In this document: positions 18,818 to 28,850 of the stretch, piece after piece | Layout of the letters: the number at the start of each line of letters is the position of its first letter | Numbering within the stretch: the stretch's first letter is position 1 | Sequence record: MN508616.2 | Strand: one strand, 5' to 3' | Source of the DNA: Escherichia phage ES19 | Length of the DNA stretch: 64,000 nt | The notes under the pieces: model-generated | The model's database searches: none | Seen by the model: the letters and a program-made list of their open reading frames with translations, nothing else | What the model was told of the DNA's origin: nothing | Translations under genes and position numbers: made by a program

Positions 18818-19288
18818 TTAATCATGTTTCCACACCCCATCGGTATTTGACCAAAGCCGCTGATTATCTGATCCTCGCCACAGCTTTTTAGTCGGAAGAT
18901 TTTTCTCATACTTCCCATCAATAATAACATCAACATATTTAAGCATTTCTAGTTGTTTAATATCTTCAAATTTATATCCTGTCCACAACCAAATGCTTTT
19001 ATTGGGATAAAGATTTTTTACTGTTTGAACAATGCAATGAATAACATCTCGATTATCAGGATAGAGAGGGTCACCTCCGGTTATAGTCAATCCTTCTATA
19101 TAATCATTATTCAAACATTCAATTAATTGCTCTAGTGTTTCACCAGTGAATGGAATACCATTTCTAGCATTCCATGTTGATTTATTATAACACCCTTCAC
19201 ATTTATGCAAACAACCTGTAACGAAAAGAACGACCCTACAACCAGGGCCATTCACAAAATCGCAAGGATAAAATCTATCATAATTCAT
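18818..19288 (-). CDS. nrdG: anaerobic ribonucleotide reductase activase NrdG (radical SAM)
   Basis: 156-aa ORF with CLHKCEGC radical-SAM cluster motif; overlaps the nrdD stop. Confidence 0.9.
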   Translation of the reverse strand: MNYDRFYPCDFVNGPGCRVVLFVTGCLHKCEGCYNKSTWNARNGIPFTGETLEQLIECLNNDYIEGLTITGGDPLYPDNRDVIHCIVQTVKNLYPNKSIWLWTGYKFEDIKQLEMLKYVDVIIDGKYEKNLPTKKLWRGSDNQRLWSNTDGVWKHD

Positions 19289-21102
19289 TGATGCTTAACC
19301 CTATGCATGATTTCTTTATTTTTACCGAGATTAAATCCGCGTTCGTTCGGATTTCCCAAATAACCACATGTTCTTCTTATTGTGTTCATCTTTTTAGGAT
19401 CAGTTTCTCCACAAATAGAACAAACAAATCCGTTTTCAGTAGGAGTCATTTCATGGGTGCTTCCGCATGTAAAACACTTATCTACTGGCATATTAACACC
19501 AAAATAATCTAAATGCTGTGCAGCATAATCCCACACGGCCTCAAGACCTTTTAAGTTATTTTTCATATCAGGAAGTTCAACATAAGAAATGTGACCACCT
19601 GTCGCAATGAAATGATATGGCGCTTCACGAGAAATCTTTTCAAACGGAGTAATATTTTCTTCTACTGAAACATGGAAACTGTTAGTATACCAGCCTTTAT
19701 CAGTAACATCCTTTACACTTCCATATTTTTCGGTATCAAGTTTACAGAAGCGATAACATAAGTTTTCAGCAGGAGTAGAATACAAACTAAAAGCAAATCC
19801 GGTTCTTTCAGTCCATTGTTTAAGATGAGTATTCATTTTAGTTAAAATTTCTTGTCCAATATCACGACCGACAAGAATATTCAATTCGTGAATACCAATG
19901 TATCCTAGAGACACTGAACTTCTACCGTTTTTAAATAACTCAATTATGTCGTCATCAGGTTTAAGACGAACCCCGAATGCACCTTCTTGGTAAAGAATAG
20001 GAGCAACAGTCGCTTTAACTCCTTTTAAGGAACTAATTCTACACATCAAAGCTTCAAAACATAAATCCATTCGCTCATTGAACAATTCAGTAAATTTCTG
20101 TTCATTGAACTGTGTTCCAATATAAGAATCTAATGCGATACGAGGAAGATTCAGTGTTACAACACCAAGATTATTACGTCCATCAAGAATTTCATTGCCA
20201 GTCGAATCTTTCCATACGCTCAAGAAACTACGGCAACCCATCGGAGAAACAGGAACAGATGAACCAGTGATAGCTTTATTGTTCTTAGCTGAAATAATAT
20301 CAGGATACATCCTTTTGCTTGCGCACTCTAGAGCAAGCTGTTTAATATCATAGTTCGGATCATCTTTATAAAGATTAACACCTTCTTCAACAAACATAAC
20401 AAGCTTAGGGAAAATAGGAGTTATCCCATCACGACCAAGACCTTTAATACGATTTTTCAGAATTGCTTTCTGAATCATTCGTTCAGTCCAGTCAGTTCCC
20501 GTACCAAATGTAATTGTTACAAAAGGCGTTTGTCCGTTTGAACTAAAGAGAGTGTTTACTTCATATTCATAAGCTTGAAATGCATCGTATACGTCTTTTT
20601 CTGTTTTAGATTGAGCATAATTCAACGCATCAGCGATTTGCCATTTTTCTGCATCCTCAATATGTTTTGCATAGGTGCGTTTAACATAAGGAGAAAGTAC
20701 TTTATCTACATTCGCAAAAGTCGTTCCGCCGTATTGATGGGAAGCAACTTGCGCAGTAATTTGCGCCATAATTGCAGTAGCAACGCCAATTGATTTAGGA
20801 GTTTCAATCTGTGCATTACCAAGCTTAAATCCGTTTTCAAGCATTCCTTTTAAATCTACTAAACAACAATTAGTAAATGGAAGAGCAGGGGAATAATCAA
20901 TATCATGGAAATGAATAATTCCGCTTTCATGCGCTTTCATAATAAAAGACGGGACCATATTTTTGGCAATGTGTTTAGACACAATACCAGCCATAAGGTC
21001 CCGTTGAGTTGGAAAAACACGAGAATCTTTATTAGCATTCTCGTTTAAAAGGTCTTTATTAGTTTTATGAATCAATCCTTCAATTTCTTTTTCAATTGTC
21101 AT
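19285..21102 (-). CDS. nrdD: anaerobic ribonucleotide reductase NrdD (uninterrupted)
   Basis: 605-aa continuous ORF; C-terminal CxxC zinc ribbon (CFTCGSTHEM...CSICGE) and glycyl-radical motif RTCGYLG. Confidence 0.95.
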   Translation of the reverse strand: MTIEKEIEGLIHKTNKDLLNENANKDSRVFPTQRDLMAGIVSKHIAKNMVPSFIMKAHESGIIHFHDIDYSPALPFTNCCLVDLKGMLENGFKLGNAQIETPKSIGVATAIMAQITAQVASHQYGGTTFANVDKVLSPYVKRTYAKHIEDAEKWQIADALNYAQSKTEKDVYDAFQAYEYEVNTLFSSNGQTPFVTITFGTGTDWTERMIQKAILKNRIKGLGRDGITPIFPKLVMFVEEGVNLYKDDPNYDIKQLALECASKRMYPDIISAKNNKAITGSSVPVSPMGCRSFLSVWKDSTGNEILDGRNNLGVVTLNLPRIALDSYIGTQFNEQKFTELFNERMDLCFEALMCRISSLKGVKATVAPILYQEGAFGVRLKPDDDIIELFKNGRSSVSLGYIGIHELNILVGRDIGQEILTKMNTHLKQWTERTGFAFSLYSTPAENLCYRFCKLDTEKYGSVKDVTDKGWYTNSFHVSVEENITPFEKISREAPYHFIATGGHISYVELPDMKNNLKGLEAVWDYAAQHLDYFGVNMPVDKCFTCGSTHEMTPTENGFVCSICGETDPKKMNTIRRTCGYLGNPNERGFNLGKNKEIMHRVKHQ

Positions 21103-22543: not shown

Positions 22544-22726
22544 TTTTCACCAATTAATTTCGCAATTTATTAAGTTCTTCATAATCAATCCAGGATTCTA
22601 ATCCTGATGGCAAATCAGATTCAATTTCCCAAAGAAGCTCTTCAATTTTCTGAAGACGATCTAGTTCTTCGGCTGGAATAGTAACCATTGACGGAGCTCG
22701 TGATACATTAATATCGTAAATCATAT

Positions 22727-22942
22727 TTACCCCAATTTAACCATACAATCGCCGTATTTCCACTTAGAAATAGACTTTTCACCATTAGAATAATAAACTT
22801 CGAGTTTAGCACGATTATTTTTAATTTGAATAACCTTGGCTGTCATCAAAGTTCCATACCCATAATAAACTGCAACTTCATCACCTACATATACCGCGCT
22901 TCCGCGGTAATCATGAATATAGTCAGTTCCTTCGAGCATCAT
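22727..22942 (-). CDS. hypothetical small protein
   Basis: 71-aa ORF overlapping the nrdC stop by 4 nt. Confidence 0.4.
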   Translation of the reverse strand: MMLEGTDYIHDYRGSAVYVGDEVAVYYGYGTLMTAKVIQIKNNRAKLEVYYSNGEKSISKWKYGDCMVKLG

Positions 22943-23203: not shown

Positions 23204-23446
23204 TTATTCCTTAATTCCTAGTACTTGTTTAAAAGTCTCGTCGTAATCAAGACTTTGGCCCGTTTGTTCTTTATGTTTGTATATAATATCACTTACTTCT
23301 GATAGCATATTTTTATATGAACGAGTTAAAGCAGATTTAAGCACGCTGTATCTATCAGGAAATTTACCGTGTTCATTATAATAAGCTATTGCTAATTCAC
23401 GGACTGCCTTTTCAGCAGCCTCCATATATTCTTTACGATTGGTCAT
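23204..23446 (-). CDS. hypothetical small protein
   Basis: 80-aa ORF. Confidence 0.4.
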
Positions 23447-23448
23447 TT

Positions 23449-23838
23449 TTAATCCAAAATATTATTAGGCATTGGTTGAACACTCACAAGTTCTTTAAAG
23501 AACTCAGTAGAGTCAGGCAATTTAACCATTTCCGGAGCATGCTTACTGAATTTATGTTTACATTGACGGCATTTATATTCAAGCTCTGGTTTACGCCAGT
23601 TAATCAACTGAACTTGTTCAGTACCGCATTCAGGGCAATTAGGAACGTTTTTAGAAGCTCTTTCACGTCGTTCAACCATAGCCATAATAGCATCCCATGC
23701 TGGAGGTTTAAAATCTAAATCGTCGCAGCCGTGAATCTTTCCACGCATTTCCATATCATCTTCCTCACCAGCCATAATAATTTTAATTAAACTGGAATTA
23801 CTTGAAGCTGCAATGTCTTCTAATAAACGCTTTTTCAT
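23449..23838 (-). CDS. hypothetical zinc-ribbon protein
   Basis: 129-aa ORF with CPECG...CRQCKH four-Cys ribbon. Confidence 0.45.
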
Positions 23839-24764
23839 TTCAATACCTCAATAGCATTACGTAAACCATTTGCTTTTGCATTAAGAGCTTTTAACAATTT
23901 GGTGTGTTCTGCAATTTGGGCTTCAACTTCAATCAAACGGGCATTGAGATATTCACGTTCTTCACTCAGATTATCAACCTTTTCTACTTTAGGCTCTTTT
24001 ACAACTGTCTTATATGTATTAGGGTTCTTCAGTTTAATTAGAATGCGTGAACTGTATAACATTGAACCATTATCTTCGGTTTCGTCATACATTTCCACTA
24101 CGTCCATAATTTTTAACATCATGCGGAGTTTATAAGACAACGAACGAATAGTTTTGTTGTGCTTATTAATTTCTTTAGCTGTCATGGTGCCAAGATTACG
24201 TGAGTAATAATAAGGAACCTGGATATTAATTAATACTGATGAACCACCTGGCTTGTGTGTTACTTCATCAGCAATAACCCAGTCCTTAACATGAACTGTA
24301 TTTGTACGGTTATCGCCCGCGGTAAATAGTTTGCGAGCATGCTTAAAAAGCATATTCACTTGGTCATTGAATTGACAAGCAAATTTATCAGCAAATTTAG
24401 TTTCAGGAATGGTAGAAAACCAATCAGCCAAATGAGTCTTTTTAACATCATTAACAATAGTAAATTCAACCAAATCGGTTATAGATGTCTCAGATTTAAT
24501 GAAGCTCGGCTTCATAAAGTTTTTAATGTTCTCATGAGCTACAGTAGAAGATAACATACGAGAACGTTTAAACCATTCAAGCAAATTGCCTAACGAATGA
24601 GAATAAGCGTTTTGAGTATCTTTACAGATATGATTTTCCTGACCAACATATTGAAGGAAATCACGAAGAATATTATTGATTACTGCTCTGTGTCCTATCT
24701 GATAATTACGATGTTTAGTAATAAGACTGTCAAAATAATCAATATAATGTTTACGAGTTTTCAT
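23835..24764 (-). CDS. hypothetical protein, coiled-coil paralog family member A
   Basis: 309-aa ORF; C-terminal heptad coiled coil ([42 protein letters not shown]); internal FKHARKLFTAG motif shared with neighbours. Confidence 0.5.
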   Translation of the reverse strand: MKTRKHYIDYFDSLITKHRNYQIGHRAVINNILRDFLQYVGQENHICKDTQNAYSHSLGNLLEWFKRSRMLSSTVAHENIKNFMKPSFIKSETSITDLVEFTIVNDVKKTHLADWFSTIPETKFADKFACQFNDQVNMLFKHARKLFTAGDNRTNTVHVKDWVIADEVTHKPGGSSVLINIQVPYYYSRNLGTMTAKEINKHNKTIRSLSYKLRMMLKIMDVVEMYDETEDNGSMLYSSRILIKLKNPNTYKTVVKEPKVEKVDNLSEEREYLNARLIEVEAQIAEHTKLLKALNAKANGLRNAIEVLK

Positions 24765-24816
24765 GTTCTTCTCACTTGGTTAATGGTTTATACTCCAAGC
24801 CATCCTTGGCTTTAAA

Positions 24817-25818
24817 TTACTTAATTAACTGTAAAGCTTGTTCAAGACGATCAAGACGATTAACGGATTCTTCCCAAATCTTTTTAGCCTGCTCATATTC
24901 TTTCTGCGCTTTATTAGAAATTTCTAGAACTTCTTTATAAGCTTTTTCTAGTGCAATAACTTCTGGACGAATTTCTACTGGTTCAGGCGAATCGTCAAGA
25001 CATTCCATTAGTTCCTCAAGGGTAGTTTCTTCTTTAGGAGTATTCACAATTTCATCACATTTTTGTTGGTAAATTTCTTTATCAGTCGGTGAGTACGCAC
25101 ACTTTACTTCACGGAGACTAACTACAATTTTATATCCTTCCCAACCGCATATATTCTTAAAAGGATAAGTATGAATATTTTCTACTGTTTCCATACAAAG
25201 TAATGCGGTCTCTAACTGACGAGTTATATCGCTAGCAATTGAGAAAAATTTATTAATGTTCTTTTGATTAGCTTCTGGTGTAAAAAATTCATAATTCACA
25301 AAAATAGCTGCTTTATTTTTATCAAGCTCATATTCTTTTATGATAATCATATCAGAAGCCCAAGGATGGATTTGACGATAATCACCATAGCATAATTTAG
25401 AAGCTGATTTTAGAATTTGCTTCTTGAAAAGTCTAAAATTACTAATCCAACGACGAGTAAAAATATTCTCAGGGTCTTCTTTATTATTAAGATGATAAGA
25501 ATTAACATCACCGAACCAACTGTATCCTACTACATCTTTAGTTCGTTTAATTTCTTTCCCAAATTTACCAAGAATATCTTGATTAACTAAATATGAAAGA
25601 AGACGAGAACCTTTAAAAGTTTCCTTAATATCATCTTTATATTCGCGACTAGAAATTTTATGAACTTCATGAATAAATTTGCTTGAAGAAACAATACTTG
25701 CATCAATATTATTGAGCCATTGATTGATAATGGAAATAACACTATTCTGACTAAACACAGGTTTAACTTTATCATCAATAACGCTATTGAATGATTTGAT
25801 ATATTCGTTACGAGTCAT
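24817..25818 (-). CDS. hypothetical protein, coiled-coil paralog family member B
   Basis: Start at MTRNEYIKSF behind GAGGAGATTAAT and an early promoter; RLFKKQILKSASKL motif; C-terminal coiled coil. Confidence 0.5.
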   Translation of the reverse strand: MTRNEYIKSFNSVIDDKVKPVFSQNSVISIINQWLNNIDASIVSSSKFIHEVHKISSREYKDDIKETFKGSRLLSYLVNQDILGKFGKEIKRTKDVVGYSWFGDVNSYHLNNKEDPENIFTRRWISNFRLFKKQILKSASKLCYGDYRQIHPWASDMIIIKEYELDKNKAAIFVNYEFFTPEANQKNINKFFSIASDITRQLETALLCMETVENIHTYPFKNICGWEGYKIVVSLREVKCAYSPTDKEIYQQKCDEIVNTPKEETTLEELMECLDDSPEPVEIRPEVIALEKAYKEVLEISNKAQKEYEQAKKIWEESVNRLDRLEQALQLIK

Positions 25819-25846
25819 ATTAATCTCCTCAGTAGAAAGTAAGAAC

Positions 25847-25876
25847 ATTATACCACATCCTTGTGGCAAAGTAAAC
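25847..25876 (-). promoter_or_regulatory. T4-type early promoter (-35 GTTTAC, -10 TATAAT)
   Basis: Minus strand GTTTACTTTGCCACAAGGATGTGGTATAAT upstream of the ATG at 25818. Confidence 0.55.
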
Positions 25877-26898
25877 TAGTTTAGTGCATTTAGTGCGTTG
25901 TTCAGTTTAGAACGTTGCTTCGTAAGATTTTTGACTTTTTCTTGAGCTTTTTCTAGCATCTTTTCAGCTTCTAACACTTCATTAGTTGCTTTAACGAGTT
26001 CATCATCTACTGCCTTGATAGACTTCTCAATCGCATCCGCGTGCCATTTTTCAACAGGTTTAAGACTCGGATTTTCAACAGGAAGAAAATTCACTTTATT
26101 GAATTTCCATGTATCTTTATTACCTGAACTATACATCCAAAATTTAGGATCGTTTGATGAGTAATTGGATAAATTTAAGATATCTTGCACTTCCTGCTTT
26201 TTCTCTTGCGGGACTTCGTCCTTTCTCAAAAAATCGTATTTAAATGAAACGATCATATCAAGTTCATACGTTGTTGTATGTTCCCAATTTCGCTCAAAAT
26301 GAGGTAAAATCTTAGACTGAACCGCGGCAACTACATCCATATACTTAAATGCTTCTGTCAACTGTGATTTAAGGCATTCACAAATTGAAAGAGAATTTTT
26401 TGTATTAGGTTTAAAGCTAATTCGTGCAGTTCTGTTATTTTCTTTTAATGGTCTTACTTCCATCTGAAGAGTATAACCATCAAATTTCAGATTCTTTAAG
26501 TTAATATCAGAACCTTTTAATCGACTAGCAGTAGACAAAATTTGCTTTAATTGTTTACGGAATAGAGCAATAAATCTCCATTCAATACGATAATGATTTG
26601 GATTGAAAAATCCAGATGATAAATCGACCTTACTCTGACCAACACCTTGAACAAATAGAGGATTTTTATAATCAATAGTTTTACAGAAATCGGTGAGCTG
26701 TTCACGAGCAGTCATTTGAGTAATATACCCAGCTTCATTAAAATTACGCACCCATTCACTGCTGTTCAGATGTTTAAAGGCGTGAATGGAACAATTAACT
26801 TTACCAAGGTCTAAATTATTTTCACACAAAAATGTCATAGCATCACGAGTATAGCTGGCATTACGAACCATATCTTCAATTTGAGAACGAGTTTTCAT
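25876..26898 (-). CDS. hypothetical protein, coiled-coil paralog family member C
   Basis: 340-aa ORF; ALFRKQLKQILSTASRL motif homologous to member B; C-terminal coiled coil. Confidence 0.5.
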   Translation of the reverse strand: MKTRSQIEDMVRNASYTRDAMTFLCENNLDLGKVNCSIHAFKHLNSSEWVRNFNEAGYITQMTAREQLTDFCKTIDYKNPLFVQGVGQSKVDLSSGFFNPNHYRIEWRFIALFRKQLKQILSTASRLKGSDINLKNLKFDGYTLQMEVRPLKENNRTARISFKPNTKNSLSICECLKSQLTEAFKYMDVVAAVQSKILPHFERNWEHTTTYELDMIVSFKYDFLRKDEVPQEKKQEVQDILNLSNYSSNDPKFWMYSSGNKDTWKFNKVNFLPVENPSLKPVEKWHADAIEKSIKAVDDELVKATNEVLEAEKMLEKAQEKVKNLTKQRSKLNNALNALN

Positions 26899-26906
26899 AG
26901 TGTTCC

Positions 26907-27809
26907 TTAAGATTTAAGTAAATCAACAATTTTAATTAATTTTTCACGCTCAGATTTAGCTTTACTACTCAATCCAGATAGTCTGAAAATTTCATCGTCA
27001 TATTGTTGAATAGAAATATTCAGCTCTTCAATTTGCTTATTAAAATAATCAATTTGTTCAGAATGTTTTTCGTTACTACGAACTGGTACAGGTTTTGTAG
27101 GCAATTTAGTTGAACTGGATTCATCCGGGCGATAAATTAAAATACAACTTGAACCAATCGGACATTTAGCACCAGATGAATATTCTAATGTTCCGGCTTC
27201 TTTTAAAACTTCAAAAGCTAAACAGAGATGATGCCCCATATTAACATAATCTGTAGAGTGAGCTCTGATATAATAATCATCGCCACGAATACTAAATTTA
27301 AAGCATTTAAGGTCTTCTGTATTATTAGTTTTAAAAATCATCTGTTTATCTAAACCTTTAGCTAATCGAGCGCCTAATGCTAATAATCGTCGTTGATTTT
27401 CCCACAAATCTGCGATCATTTGGTCAAATGATAATTTCGGCATTAGTCGACCATAAAGGTCATATCCTTTATTATAATTGCGAAGGATTTCACTCGCATT
27501 AATACGAGACAACGCTCCAATTTTATTAAGGGCTTTCATGATGCGATTAGATAAACCCATTCCAGACCCATTTGTTCGTTGTAAATGTTTTTCTAATCCA
27601 AATCCAATATCAACTTTAAATTTATCTAAAATTTCAGCATGAACATCTCTGTCAATAACATTCAAATCCAAAGTTGGGTTAAATCTATGAAAAAATTTAT
27701 CTGGCTCTCCACGACGAAGTACAGTCCATTCATTTAATTTTTTATTAACTAAAGATTTAATTACTGCATTGACATTATTAATTACTACTGACATATTTTT
27801 CTCACTCAA
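26907..27809 (-). CDS. hypothetical protein, coiled-coil paralog family member D
   Basis: 300-aa ORF; QRRLLALGARLAKGL motif; C-terminal coiled coil (IEELNISIQQYDDEIFRLSGLSSKAKSEREKLIKIVDLLKS). Confidence 0.45.
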   Translation of the reverse strand: MSEKNMSVVINNVNAVIKSLVNKKLNEWTVLRRGEPDKFFHRFNPTLDLNVIDRDVHAEILDKFKVDIGFGLEKHLQRTNGSGMGLSNRIMKALNKIGALSRINASEILRNYNKGYDLYGRLMPKLSFDQMIADLWENQRRLLALGARLAKGLDKQMIFKTNNTEDLKCFKFSIRGDDYYIRAHSTDYVNMGHHLCLAFEVLKEAGTLEYSSGAKCPIGSSCILIYRPDESSSTKLPTKPVPVRSNEKHSEQIDYFNKQIEELNISIQQYDDEIFRLSGLSSKAKSEREKLIKIVDLLKS

Positions 27810-28265: not shown

Positions 28266-28793
28266 TTATGCGAGTACCGTCTTTAACCGTTCTTCAAATT
28301 TCCGAAGAGTGTTCTGGCGTTCAGCTCTTTGCTTTTTATAAGTTTCAATACGCTCTGAAATGAGAGTGTATCGTTCATTTACTGATTCTTTCATAAAATC
28401 AGGAATTTCACGAGAAGCTTTAATCTCGTCAAATTTATCAATAACTGCTTGCTCTTCAGCAATTAAGTTATCATACATCAAAATATCTTTCTTGATGAAC
28501 TCAATATCTTCTTGAGTTACACGAGATAATTTAGATGCTTTATCCTTTTTGTACTGTTCGTTAGTATCACGAGACCAGTGTAATGTACGATTTTTATTCG
28601 TATTCTTGTAAATTTCTACAATACCAATCTCATCGATAATAACGATCCAATTCCAACGAGATTTGTAAATTTGTCCTCCGTCAACCGTGATTTCACCTCC
28701 GATTGAGATGTCATTAAAGAACTTGCTTTGTGCTTCAGATTTAAATTTACCATCATTGTAGTTTACCAAGTTGAAAATATCTTTAGCATTCAT
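28266..28793 (-). CDS. hypothetical protein
   Basis: Start at MNAKDIFNLVNY behind GGAGGAACAAAA and an early promoter; C-terminal charged helix. Confidence 0.45.
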   Translation of the reverse strand: MNAKDIFNLVNYNDGKFKSEAQSKFFNDISIGGEITVDGGQIYKSRWNWIVIIDEIGIVEIYKNTNKNRTLHWSRDTNEQYKKDKASKLSRVTQEDIEFIKKDILMYDNLIAEEQAVIDKFDEIKASREIPDFMKESVNERYTLISERIETYKKQRAERQNTLRKFEERLKTVLA

Positions 28794-28820: not shown

Positions 28821-28850
28821 ATAGTACCACAGAGGAATGGTCTTGTAAAC
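28821..28850 (-). promoter_or_regulatory. T4-type early promoter (-35 GTTTAC, -10 TACTAT)
   Basis: Same repeat family as 3775..3804; minus-strand GTTTACAAGACCATTCCTCTGTGGTACTAT. Confidence 0.55.

Follow-up and report, generated by a model that had tools for sequence, protein, structure and literature searches.

Four adjacent open reading frames (ORFs) of Escherichia phage ES19 raise the question of whether they form one protein family and what such a family would do for the phage. They lie in a 64,000-nucleotide stretch of record MN508616.2 (the window), where a first-pass annotation had placed a tandem array of four paralogous genes at positions 23,835-27,809. The four ORFs are indeed adjacent there and all reside on the minus strand. 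Comparison with the annotated T4 genome identified them as the orthologues of T4 nrdC.3, nrdC.4, nrdC.5, and nrdC.6, collinear with their T4 counterparts and flanked by nrdC, nrdC.1, and nrdC.2 on one side and by nrdC.7 and nrdC.8 on the other. The window belongs to the genus Tequatrovirus. The 3,975-bp array is 100% identical to that of Escherichia phage ES21 and matched 656 phage records at ≥80% identity, almost all of them coliphages or phages of Shigella, Yersinia, or Salmonella from the same genus. The window protein of nrdC.5 shares 91.5% identity over 340 residues with T4 NrdC.5, together with synteny, which makes it the orthologue of a protein with published counter-defence activity. 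We find that nrdC.3-nrdC.6 are almost certainly all homologous, deeply diverged tandem paralogues. This paralogy was not described in the literature that we searched and appears to be unreported.

Pairwise identity among the four proteins does not exceed 25%. Only nrdC.3 and nrdC.4 are connected by BLASTP (E = 4e-6, 25% identity over 229 residues with the motif aligned), and the remaining five of the six protein pairs are not significant, so that profile comparisons were needed. Both nrdC.3 and nrdC.4 match phrog_1435 from end to end (E = 1.2e-115 and 2e-166, respectively), and nrdC.5 and nrdC.6 belong to the separate PHROGs families phrog_2351 and phrog_2257. The Pfam domain DUF7235 (PF23882) covers nrdC.5 across profile positions 1-307 of 307 (419.8 bits, E = 9.7e-126; gathering score, 30 bits), and the local Pfam copy gave no DUF7235 match in nrdC.3, nrdC.4, or nrdC.6. 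With initial family alignments built from a collection of 5.8 billion proteins, the nrdC.4 family aligned to the nrdC.5 family by hhalign over 192 columns (E = 3e-5). The match between nrdC.3/4 and nrdC.5 survived the removal of the C-terminal helix from both sides (E = 7e-5, obtained with earlier, less diverse profiles) and is therefore not an artefact of coiled coils. When the profiles were enriched with divergent homologues from Gaprivervirus, Dhakavirus, and Mosigvirus found by tblastn, nrdC.3/4 and nrdC.5 were aligned over 248 columns with an hhalign probability of 95.9% and E = 5e-9.

The fourth member, nrdC.6, is connected through an intermediate. The single-copy protein of Enterobacter phage CIP9 (Kanagawavirus) is matched independently by the hidden Markov models (HMMs) of nrdC.3/4, nrdC.5, and nrdC.6 (E = 8e-9, 7e-9, and 4e-9), and its segment NYNWRMILTLGSRLCVGSSRELEFKT stands opposite the nrdC.6 motif in the HMM alignments. 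A Kanagawavirus profile matched nrdC.3/4 by hhalign over 250 columns (E = 7e-10) and nrdC.6 over 162 columns (E = 6e-8, more precisely 5.7e-8, and E = 1.5e-4 without the coiled coil). Structural comparison points the same way. Foldseek searches of BFVD with the AlphaFold2 model of nrdC.4 gave matches between E = 3e-8 and 5e-5, including an nrdC.3-like protein (E = 3e-8), NrdC.6 of JS10 at full length (E = 2e-6), and NrdC.6 of Sf25 (E = 5e-5), alongside many uncharacterised proteins of approximately 280-375 residues from T4-like phages of Acinetobacter, Klebsiella, Enterobacter, Pectobacterium, Erwinia, and Serratia. Template modeling (TM) scores between the nrdC.4 model and the BFVD models of nrdC.3-like and NrdC.6 proteins are just 0.3-0.5 because the domain arrangement is flexible. 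The motif strings that the first-pass annotation had quoted are present in the respective genes and occupy equivalent columns of the significant profile alignments. In each of the four proteins the motif corresponds to one and the same helix, homologous rather than a chance resemblance, and the pairwise and profile alignments that had been proposed as a check support homology of the array. Elsewhere in the window, the HMMs of the nrdC.3-nrdC.6 family matched nothing.

The AlphaFold2 model of nrdC.4 reached a predicted local distance difference test score (pLDDT) of 80.6. It starts with a helical region (residues 3-84) followed by a β-hairpin and a low-confidence loop, continues with two motif-bearing helices (residues 119-143) and a ββαββ core (residues 158-235), and ends with two short helices, a low-confidence linker, and a long terminal helix. 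The elements follow each other in the same order in the model of nrdC.5, and the two models share BFVD matches (Cronus, Mineola, PS2, and JS10 NrdC.6). The common architecture appears to consist of variable N-terminal helices, the motif helix, an α/β core, a flexible linker, and an amphipathic heptad helix of 48-60 residues. The first-pass annotation had described divergent N-terminal halves on a conserved C-terminus, which is roughly right insofar as the first 50-65 or so residues are the least alignable part. However, divergence extends throughout the proteins, and what they appear to share is the central α/β domain with the motif helix; at the C-terminus, the presence of a helix is conserved and not its sequence.

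That each protein ends in a heptad coiled coil, as had also been suggested, was confirmed in the form of a heptad-pattern helix. The last 48-60 residues follow a single unbroken heptad register in each of the four family alignments, with hydrophobic residues occupying 0.78-0.87 of the a/d positions against 0.22-0.27 of the others (column-shuffle p ≤ 0.001), and all four registers stop equally far from the C-terminus. AlphaFold2 predicts one long C-terminal helix at residues 285-332 of nrdC.4 and 281-339 of nrdC.5. The positions of the genes, motif helices, heptad helices, and promoters are listed in Table 1.

Table 1. Features of the nrdC.3-nrdC.6 array and its flanks in the window (positions in the 64,000-nucleotide stretch; aa, amino acids; AF2, AlphaFold2).
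Feature	Position	Strand	Details
nrdC.3 orthologue	23835-24764	minus	309 aa; ES21-type allele; phrog_1435 match
nrdC.4 orthologue	24817-25818	minus	333 aa from ATG 25818; phrog_1435 match
nrdC.5 orthologue	25876-26898	minus	340 aa; Pfam DUF7235; orthologue of published T4 anti-Dsr1 gene
nrdC.6 orthologue	26907-27794	minus	295 aa from ATG 27794; most divergent family member; phrog_2257 match
Shared motif helix of nrdC.3	24315-24347	minus	FKHARKLFTAG; BLASTP alignment
Shared motif helix of nrdC.4	25393-25434	minus	RLFKKQILKSASKL; within AF2 helices 119-143
Shared motif helix of nrdC.5	26518-26568	minus	ALFRKQLKQILSTASRL; profile alignment
Shared motif helix of nrdC.6	27351-27395	minus	QRRLLALGARLAKGL; profile alignments
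C-terminal heptad (coiled-coil-type) helix of nrdC.3	23838-23981	minus	residues 262-309
C-terminal heptad helix of nrdC.4	24820-24966	minus	residues 285-333; AF2 and heptad analysis
C-terminal heptad helix of nrdC.5	25879-26058	minus	residues 281-340; AF2 and heptad analysis
C-terminal heptad helix of nrdC.6	26910-27068	minus	residues 243-295
T4-type early promoter before nrdC.4	25847-25876	minus	GTTTAC-N18-TATAAT; gtgg before -10; zero mismatches
Early-promoter-like site before nrdC.8	28821-28850	minus	two mismatches; annotated early promoter in ASO78A
nrdC.1 orthologue	23204-23446	minus	array-flanking gene
nrdC.8 (bas37_0203) orthologue	28266-28793	minus	array-flanking gene

Two start codons were corrected. 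The nrdC.4 frame begins at an ATG preceded by the Shine-Dalgarno sequence GAGGAG, and the TTG at 25869 falls within its promoter. We placed the start of nrdC.6 at the ATG rather than at TTG 27809; the invariant Met-Ser of the family alignment sits at this ATG.

The proteins bear no enzyme signature, and the family has neither a solved relative nor a Pfam clan. When 68 family members were aligned jointly, conservation passed the thresholds only in columns of Leu, Ala, or generally hydrophobic residues, and no polar residue reached that level. A PDB sequence search, NCBIfam, and PADLOC returned nothing above threshold, the noise below it comprising designed helical repeats, the N-terminus of XerD, and the coiled coil of BrxC. 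Residues 30-86 of nrdC.3 show a weak, sub-threshold likeness to the N-terminal SAM-like (core-binding) helical domain of tyrosine recombinases in two libraries (Pfam PF02899, E = 0.12; NCBIfam XerD/XerC models, E = 0.004-0.03). Many GenBank records label nrdC.3-nrdC.6 and neighboring genes as thioredoxin. We rejected this label since none of the four proteins contains a CxxC sequence or matches a thioredoxin or glutaredoxin model in Pfam or NCBIfam; it seems to be an artefact spread from the gene names nrdC.N. The idea of a DNA mimic was likewise dismissed, as three of the four proteins are basic (isoelectric points of 9.0-9.3) and the fourth, nrdC.4, is only mildly acidic (5.9).

The family is restricted to T4-like phages, in which one to four copies occupy a single locus beside nrdC.2. 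An HMM of nrdC.3 and nrdC.4 retrieved only 10 proteins from 1.84 billion representatives, which marks a narrow family; no protein of the nrdC.5 or nrdC.6 families was among them, and the search yielded an intermediate of the Marfavirus type (P0233). Among phage records, tblastn found 653 with nrdC.3, 553 with nrdC.4, 607 with nrdC.5, and 741 with nrdC.6. We examined loci of Tequatrovirus, Gaprivervirus, Dhakavirus, Mosigvirus, Marfavirus, Kanagawavirus, and Mosugukvirus, and in all of these genera the slot is constant: the family genes lie on the early strand, with nrdC.2 and nrdC downstream of them. The comparison of copy numbers among T4-like genera, which had been proposed as a check on the array, gave one to four copies. 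Tequatrovirus carries all four genes in the order nrdC.6, nrdC.5, nrdC.4, nrdC.3. Gaprivervirus and Dhakavirus have three, resembling nrdC.6, nrdC.5, and nrdC.4, without nrdC.3. Within Mosigvirus, phiC120 has nrdC.6-, nrdC.5-, and nrdC.3-like genes without nrdC.4, and ESCO47 has only the nrdC.6- and nrdC.3-like genes. Marfavirus and Kanagawavirus possess one copy, with no second ORF of the locus matched by the family HMMs, and Mosugukvirus (PM2) has at least one, a single copy having been detected in a non-exhaustive scan of the locus. A further ORF of approximately 256-261 codons lies a few genes upstream of the family member in the Marfavirus (L015:3269-4042), Kanagawavirus (L016:3238-4008), and Mosugukvirus (L021:2458-3243) loci; those of Marfavirus and Kanagawavirus were unmatched by the family HMMs. 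Among the Foldseek matches, the adjacent UniProt accessions E5E4A1 and E5E4A2 of Acj61 suggest that tandem pairs occur in Acinetobacter phages too.

Across eight Tequatrovirus genomes, the ratio of nonsynonymous to synonymous substitution rates (dN/dS) was 0.29 for nrdC.3, 0.18 for nrdC.4, 0.20 for nrdC.5, and 0.10 for nrdC.6. The values for nrdC.3, nrdC.4, and nrdC.5 are 2-10 times those of most flanking genes (0.02-0.10), and these three genes are less constrained than nrdD, gp49, nrdC, nrdC.8, and nrdC.10 (0.02-0.09). Of the remaining neighbors, nrdC.2 and nrdC.7 also reach 0.24-0.29. The nrdC.3 gene exists as two alleles that are approximately 61% identical. The window protein shares 61% of its residues with T4 NrdC.3 and 77-78% with the Mosigvirus protein, and its allele is a mosaic: the first 80 or so residues are 80-88% identical to T4, and residues from about 81 to 280 are 32-58% identical to T4, with most of this stretch 85-95% identical to the Mosigvirus (phiC120/RB69-type) protein. 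Approximately 270 phage records carry a 60-80% allele of nrdC.3. Such a sequence pattern suggests recombinational exchange between genera.

Two rearranged family members were also encountered. A 299-residue protein found on three contigs, the longest of 167 kb, is a natural fusion (P0120) joining nrdC.5 residues from about 146 to 270 to nrdC.3 from about residue 137 onward; the junction is a short "VN" microhomology, and nrdC.4 is deleted. In Shigella phage Sf25, a 378-residue protein (P0121) corresponds to nrdC.6 with an internal duplication of approximately 83 residues.

Two array members had been credited with their own early promoters, which our scan did not bear out: the array contains a single canonical T4 early promoter. 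It adjoins nrdC.4 directly upstream, is followed by the Shine-Dalgarno sequence of that gene, and is annotated as an early promoter at the same site in phage ASO78A. We rejected a match at 23866-23837 as a second early promoter, as its -10 element is poor and it ends at the start codon of nrdC.2. No early, MotA-type middle, or late consensus was found directly before nrdC.3, nrdC.5, or nrdC.6. Going upstream from nrdC.6 and nrdC.5, the first promoter that can be recognised is the site before nrdC.8, from which these two genes are probably co-transcribed. The nrdC.4 promoter would serve nrdC.4 and the genes downstream, so that nrdC.3 would be read from it. From this promoter arrangement, all four proteins are predicted to be made early in infection. 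Directly past the nrdC.4 stop codon, the intergenic region between nrdC.4 and nrdC.3 contains a 5-bp GC-rich hairpin, CCAAG-N5-CTTGG (24795-24809). By the scan criteria it is not an intrinsic terminator, as the coding strand has no T-run; it may instead act in RNA stability or processing.

What the family does is known for one member. A T4 deletion mutant loses the ability to plate on ECOR17 owing to the defence gene dsr1, and T4 nrdC.5 supplied in trans restores plating of the deletion phage on the dsr1-carrying host (Srikant, Guegler and Laub, eLife 2022, PMC9391042). That study handles nrdC.5 as a single uncharacterised gene, without a mechanism and without mention of relatives. Anti-Dsr1 activity is established by complementation for the T4 allele, to which the window allele is linked by orthology. 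Our literature search found no mechanism for NrdC.5. The trigger of Dsr1 is the phage major capsid protein, recognised via a tetratricopeptide repeat (TPR) sensor that is common to Avs7 and to proteins with other effectors (2026 preprint, PMC12803255). According to the HIDEN-SEQ preprint (10.1101/2025.11.20.689424), T4 and Bas37 can do without nrdC.3-nrdC.6 on K-12, nrdC.1 is an inhibitor of Septu, and bas37_0203 is an inhibitor of Druantia III; the annotation table of the same preprint lists bas37_0203 as a 528-nucleotide gene two places past nrdC.6, which corresponds to the nrdC.8 orthologue. Since inhibitors of Septu (nrdC.1) and of Druantia III (nrdC.8) flank the array, the block from nrdC to nrdC.8 behaves as an anti-defence island.

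On balance, we regard nrdC.3-nrdC.6 as probably a diversified family of early, coiled-coil, non-enzymatic blockers of immune sensors. Because they lack a catalytic signature, the proteins are most likely stoichiometric binders, which would neutralise host immune sensors by direct binding. Made from early promoters, NrdC.5 could occupy the sensor of Dsr1 ahead of the late trigger, the major capsid protein. The other three paralogues may have diverged by duplication to cover other sensors or sensor variants, for which the wide family of proteins with the Dsr1/Avs7 sensor would provide a candidate set of targets. The C-terminal helix presumably gives a dimer or a higher oligomer that matches oligomeric targets. 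The chances that at least one paralogue besides nrdC.5 has an anti-defence role appear slightly better than even, and nrdC.3, nrdC.4, and nrdC.6 make good candidates for counteracting bacterial defences other than Dsr1. The first-pass annotation had spoken of a diversifying effector or decoy family. In favor of this description stand the anti-Dsr1 activity of nrdC.5, the non-essential nature of the genes, the anti-defence neighbors, the raised dN/dS, the nrdC.3 mosaic, and the variation in copy number from one to four; with gene-wide dN/dS below 1, positive selection was not shown.

Several observations weigh against a family of sensor blockers or loosen the evidence behind it. The gene-wide dN/dS is <1 for all four genes, and nrdC.6 evolves as slowly as its neighbors. 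Among the HIDEN-SEQ rows examined (10.1101/2025.11.20.689424), nrdC.3, nrdC.4, and nrdC.6 show no significant conditional phenotype, and we found in the literature neither an experiment tying any of these three to a defence system nor a demonstration that NrdC.5 binds Dsr1 directly. The a/d positions of nrdC.4 include Ser, Ala, and aromatic residues, which do not make a textbook dimer core. The AlphaFold2 model of nrdC.5, built from a shallow alignment, is of low confidence (pLDDT 50.8), and we used from it only the order of secondary-structure elements and the overlapping list of matches. Direct hhalign comparison of nrdC.6 with nrdC.3/4 or nrdC.5 is weak (E = 0.003-0.3), so the link of nrdC.6 to the other three, as far as sequences tell, runs indirectly through the intermediate.

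This last point, together with the five pairs that BLASTP leaves non-significant and the nrdC.3/4 HMM that drew no nrdC.5 or nrdC.6 protein from the representatives, is what could be said for the motif and the C-terminal helices being chance or convergent features of unrelated genes. The idea is largely refuted and highly improbable given the enriched profile match of nrdC.3/4 to nrdC.5, the convergence of all three HMMs on one Kanagawavirus protein in alignments that include the motif, the NrdC.6 proteins that Foldseek matched at full length to the nrdC.4 model, the common order of secondary structures in the nrdC.4 and nrdC.5 models, and the common heptad register relative to the C-terminus and genomic slot next to nrdC.2. 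A more serious alternative accepts the homology and confines counter-defence to nrdC.5, the others being early host-takeover or regulatory proteins or relaxed, partly redundant duplicates. The sole published phenotype indeed belongs to nrdC.5, the other three are non-essential and give no significant conditional signal among the HIDEN-SEQ rows examined, nrdC.6 has a low dN/dS, and paralogues at ≤25% identity often differ in function. We nevertheless consider it unlikely, since all four genes are kept as intact ORFs in 550-740 phage records, the block holds three other counter-defence genes, and nrdC.3 combines allele mosaicism with the highest dN/dS of the region, both typical of host-interaction genes.

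The proteins might also act as structural decoys, with an α/β core that mimics a fold of the neck or tail-terminator type and early oligomers that engage TPR sensors of the Avs or Dsr type in advance and leave them inactive. Each paralogue would then pre-saturate a different shape-recognising receptor (Dsr1-, Avs7-, or Avs14/15-type TPR sensors), and one duplicated scaffold would blind several pattern-recognition receptors before the late structural proteins appear. The low-confidence nrdC.5 model has weak Foldseek matches to tail completion, tail terminator, and head-tail connector proteins, and a 2026 preprint describes shape-based sensing by Avs families, in which the structural folds recognised include tail terminator and head-tail connector. 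The only known target, Dsr1, however, senses the major capsid protein and not a neck protein, and Pfam, PHROGs, and PDB sequence searches revealed no sequence similarity to any structural protein. We judge the decoy mechanism to be quite improbable, and its extension to a separate receptor for each paralogue equally so. The similarity to tail-terminator and tail-completion proteins (lambda gpU and the neck proteins of the gene transfer agent (GTA) and SaPI1) is marginal. Unlike these, the family has a helical region at the N-terminus and a long heptad helix at the C-terminus, is expressed early as judged by its promoters, and is dispensable for virion assembly.

For sensor blockers as we propose them, the closest functional parallel is DSAD1, a protein of SPbeta-group phages reported to silence tail-tube-activated DSR2, which is a defence protein of the SIR2 type that depletes NAD+. 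We propose DSAD1/DSR2 as a working model for NrdC.5/Dsr1; as far as the consulted reports describe DSAD1, the NrdC family is unrelated to it in sequence and fold. The nrdC-mobD block of T4 and similar anti-defence islands contain further inhibitors, namely nrdC.1 against Septu, bas37_0203 against Druantia III, and dmd, tifA, and adfA against toxin-antitoxin systems. In common with other T4 counter-defence genes, nrdC.3-nrdC.6 are early, non-essential, small to medium in size, without known domains, and clustered in a hyperplastic region. The other genes are unrelated singletons, whereas nrdC.3-nrdC.6 constitute a multi-copy family.

The genes themselves (in T4), the function of nrdC.5, and the grouping of nrdC.3 with nrdC.4 in databases were already known. 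The two are joined in phrog_1435, and the nrdC.3 portion of the chimera P0120 likewise carries a PF26897 assignment; PF23882 and PF26899 are separate families for nrdC.5 and nrdC.6, all of them of "unknown function", and the three families are not linked in the entries consulted. The third gene of the window array corresponds to T4 NrdC.5 in position and sequence, with the difference that it is placed here as one of four tandem paralogues. Relative to the literature searched, what is new is that all four genes belong to one family extending to single-copy homologues of other T4-like genera, and that the anti-Dsr1 gene adjoins three uncharacterised paralogues. Another family of phage counter-defence proteins would not be surprising in principle. 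In T4, the best-studied lytic phage, nrdC.3, nrdC.4, and nrdC.6 are still called hypothetical or, wrongly, thioredoxin, and their paralogy with nrdC.5 makes these three orphan genes specific counter-defence candidates that are cheap to test. It also suggests that one scaffold was duplicated and retuned against several immune sensors. The family, with members in approximately 550-740 sequenced T4-like phages, may matter for the host range of therapeutic phages. Efforts to understand how NrdC.5 blocks Dsr1 could start from its conserved motif helix, its α/β core, and its coiled coil.

Two further differences from T4 were observed in the neighborhood. The nrdD gene (19285-21102, minus strand), which carries the I-TevII intron in T4, is an uninterrupted ORF of 605 codons in the window. 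At 22554-22942 (minus strand), the position of T4 gene 49.3 is occupied by two different small ORFs of 56 and 71 codons.

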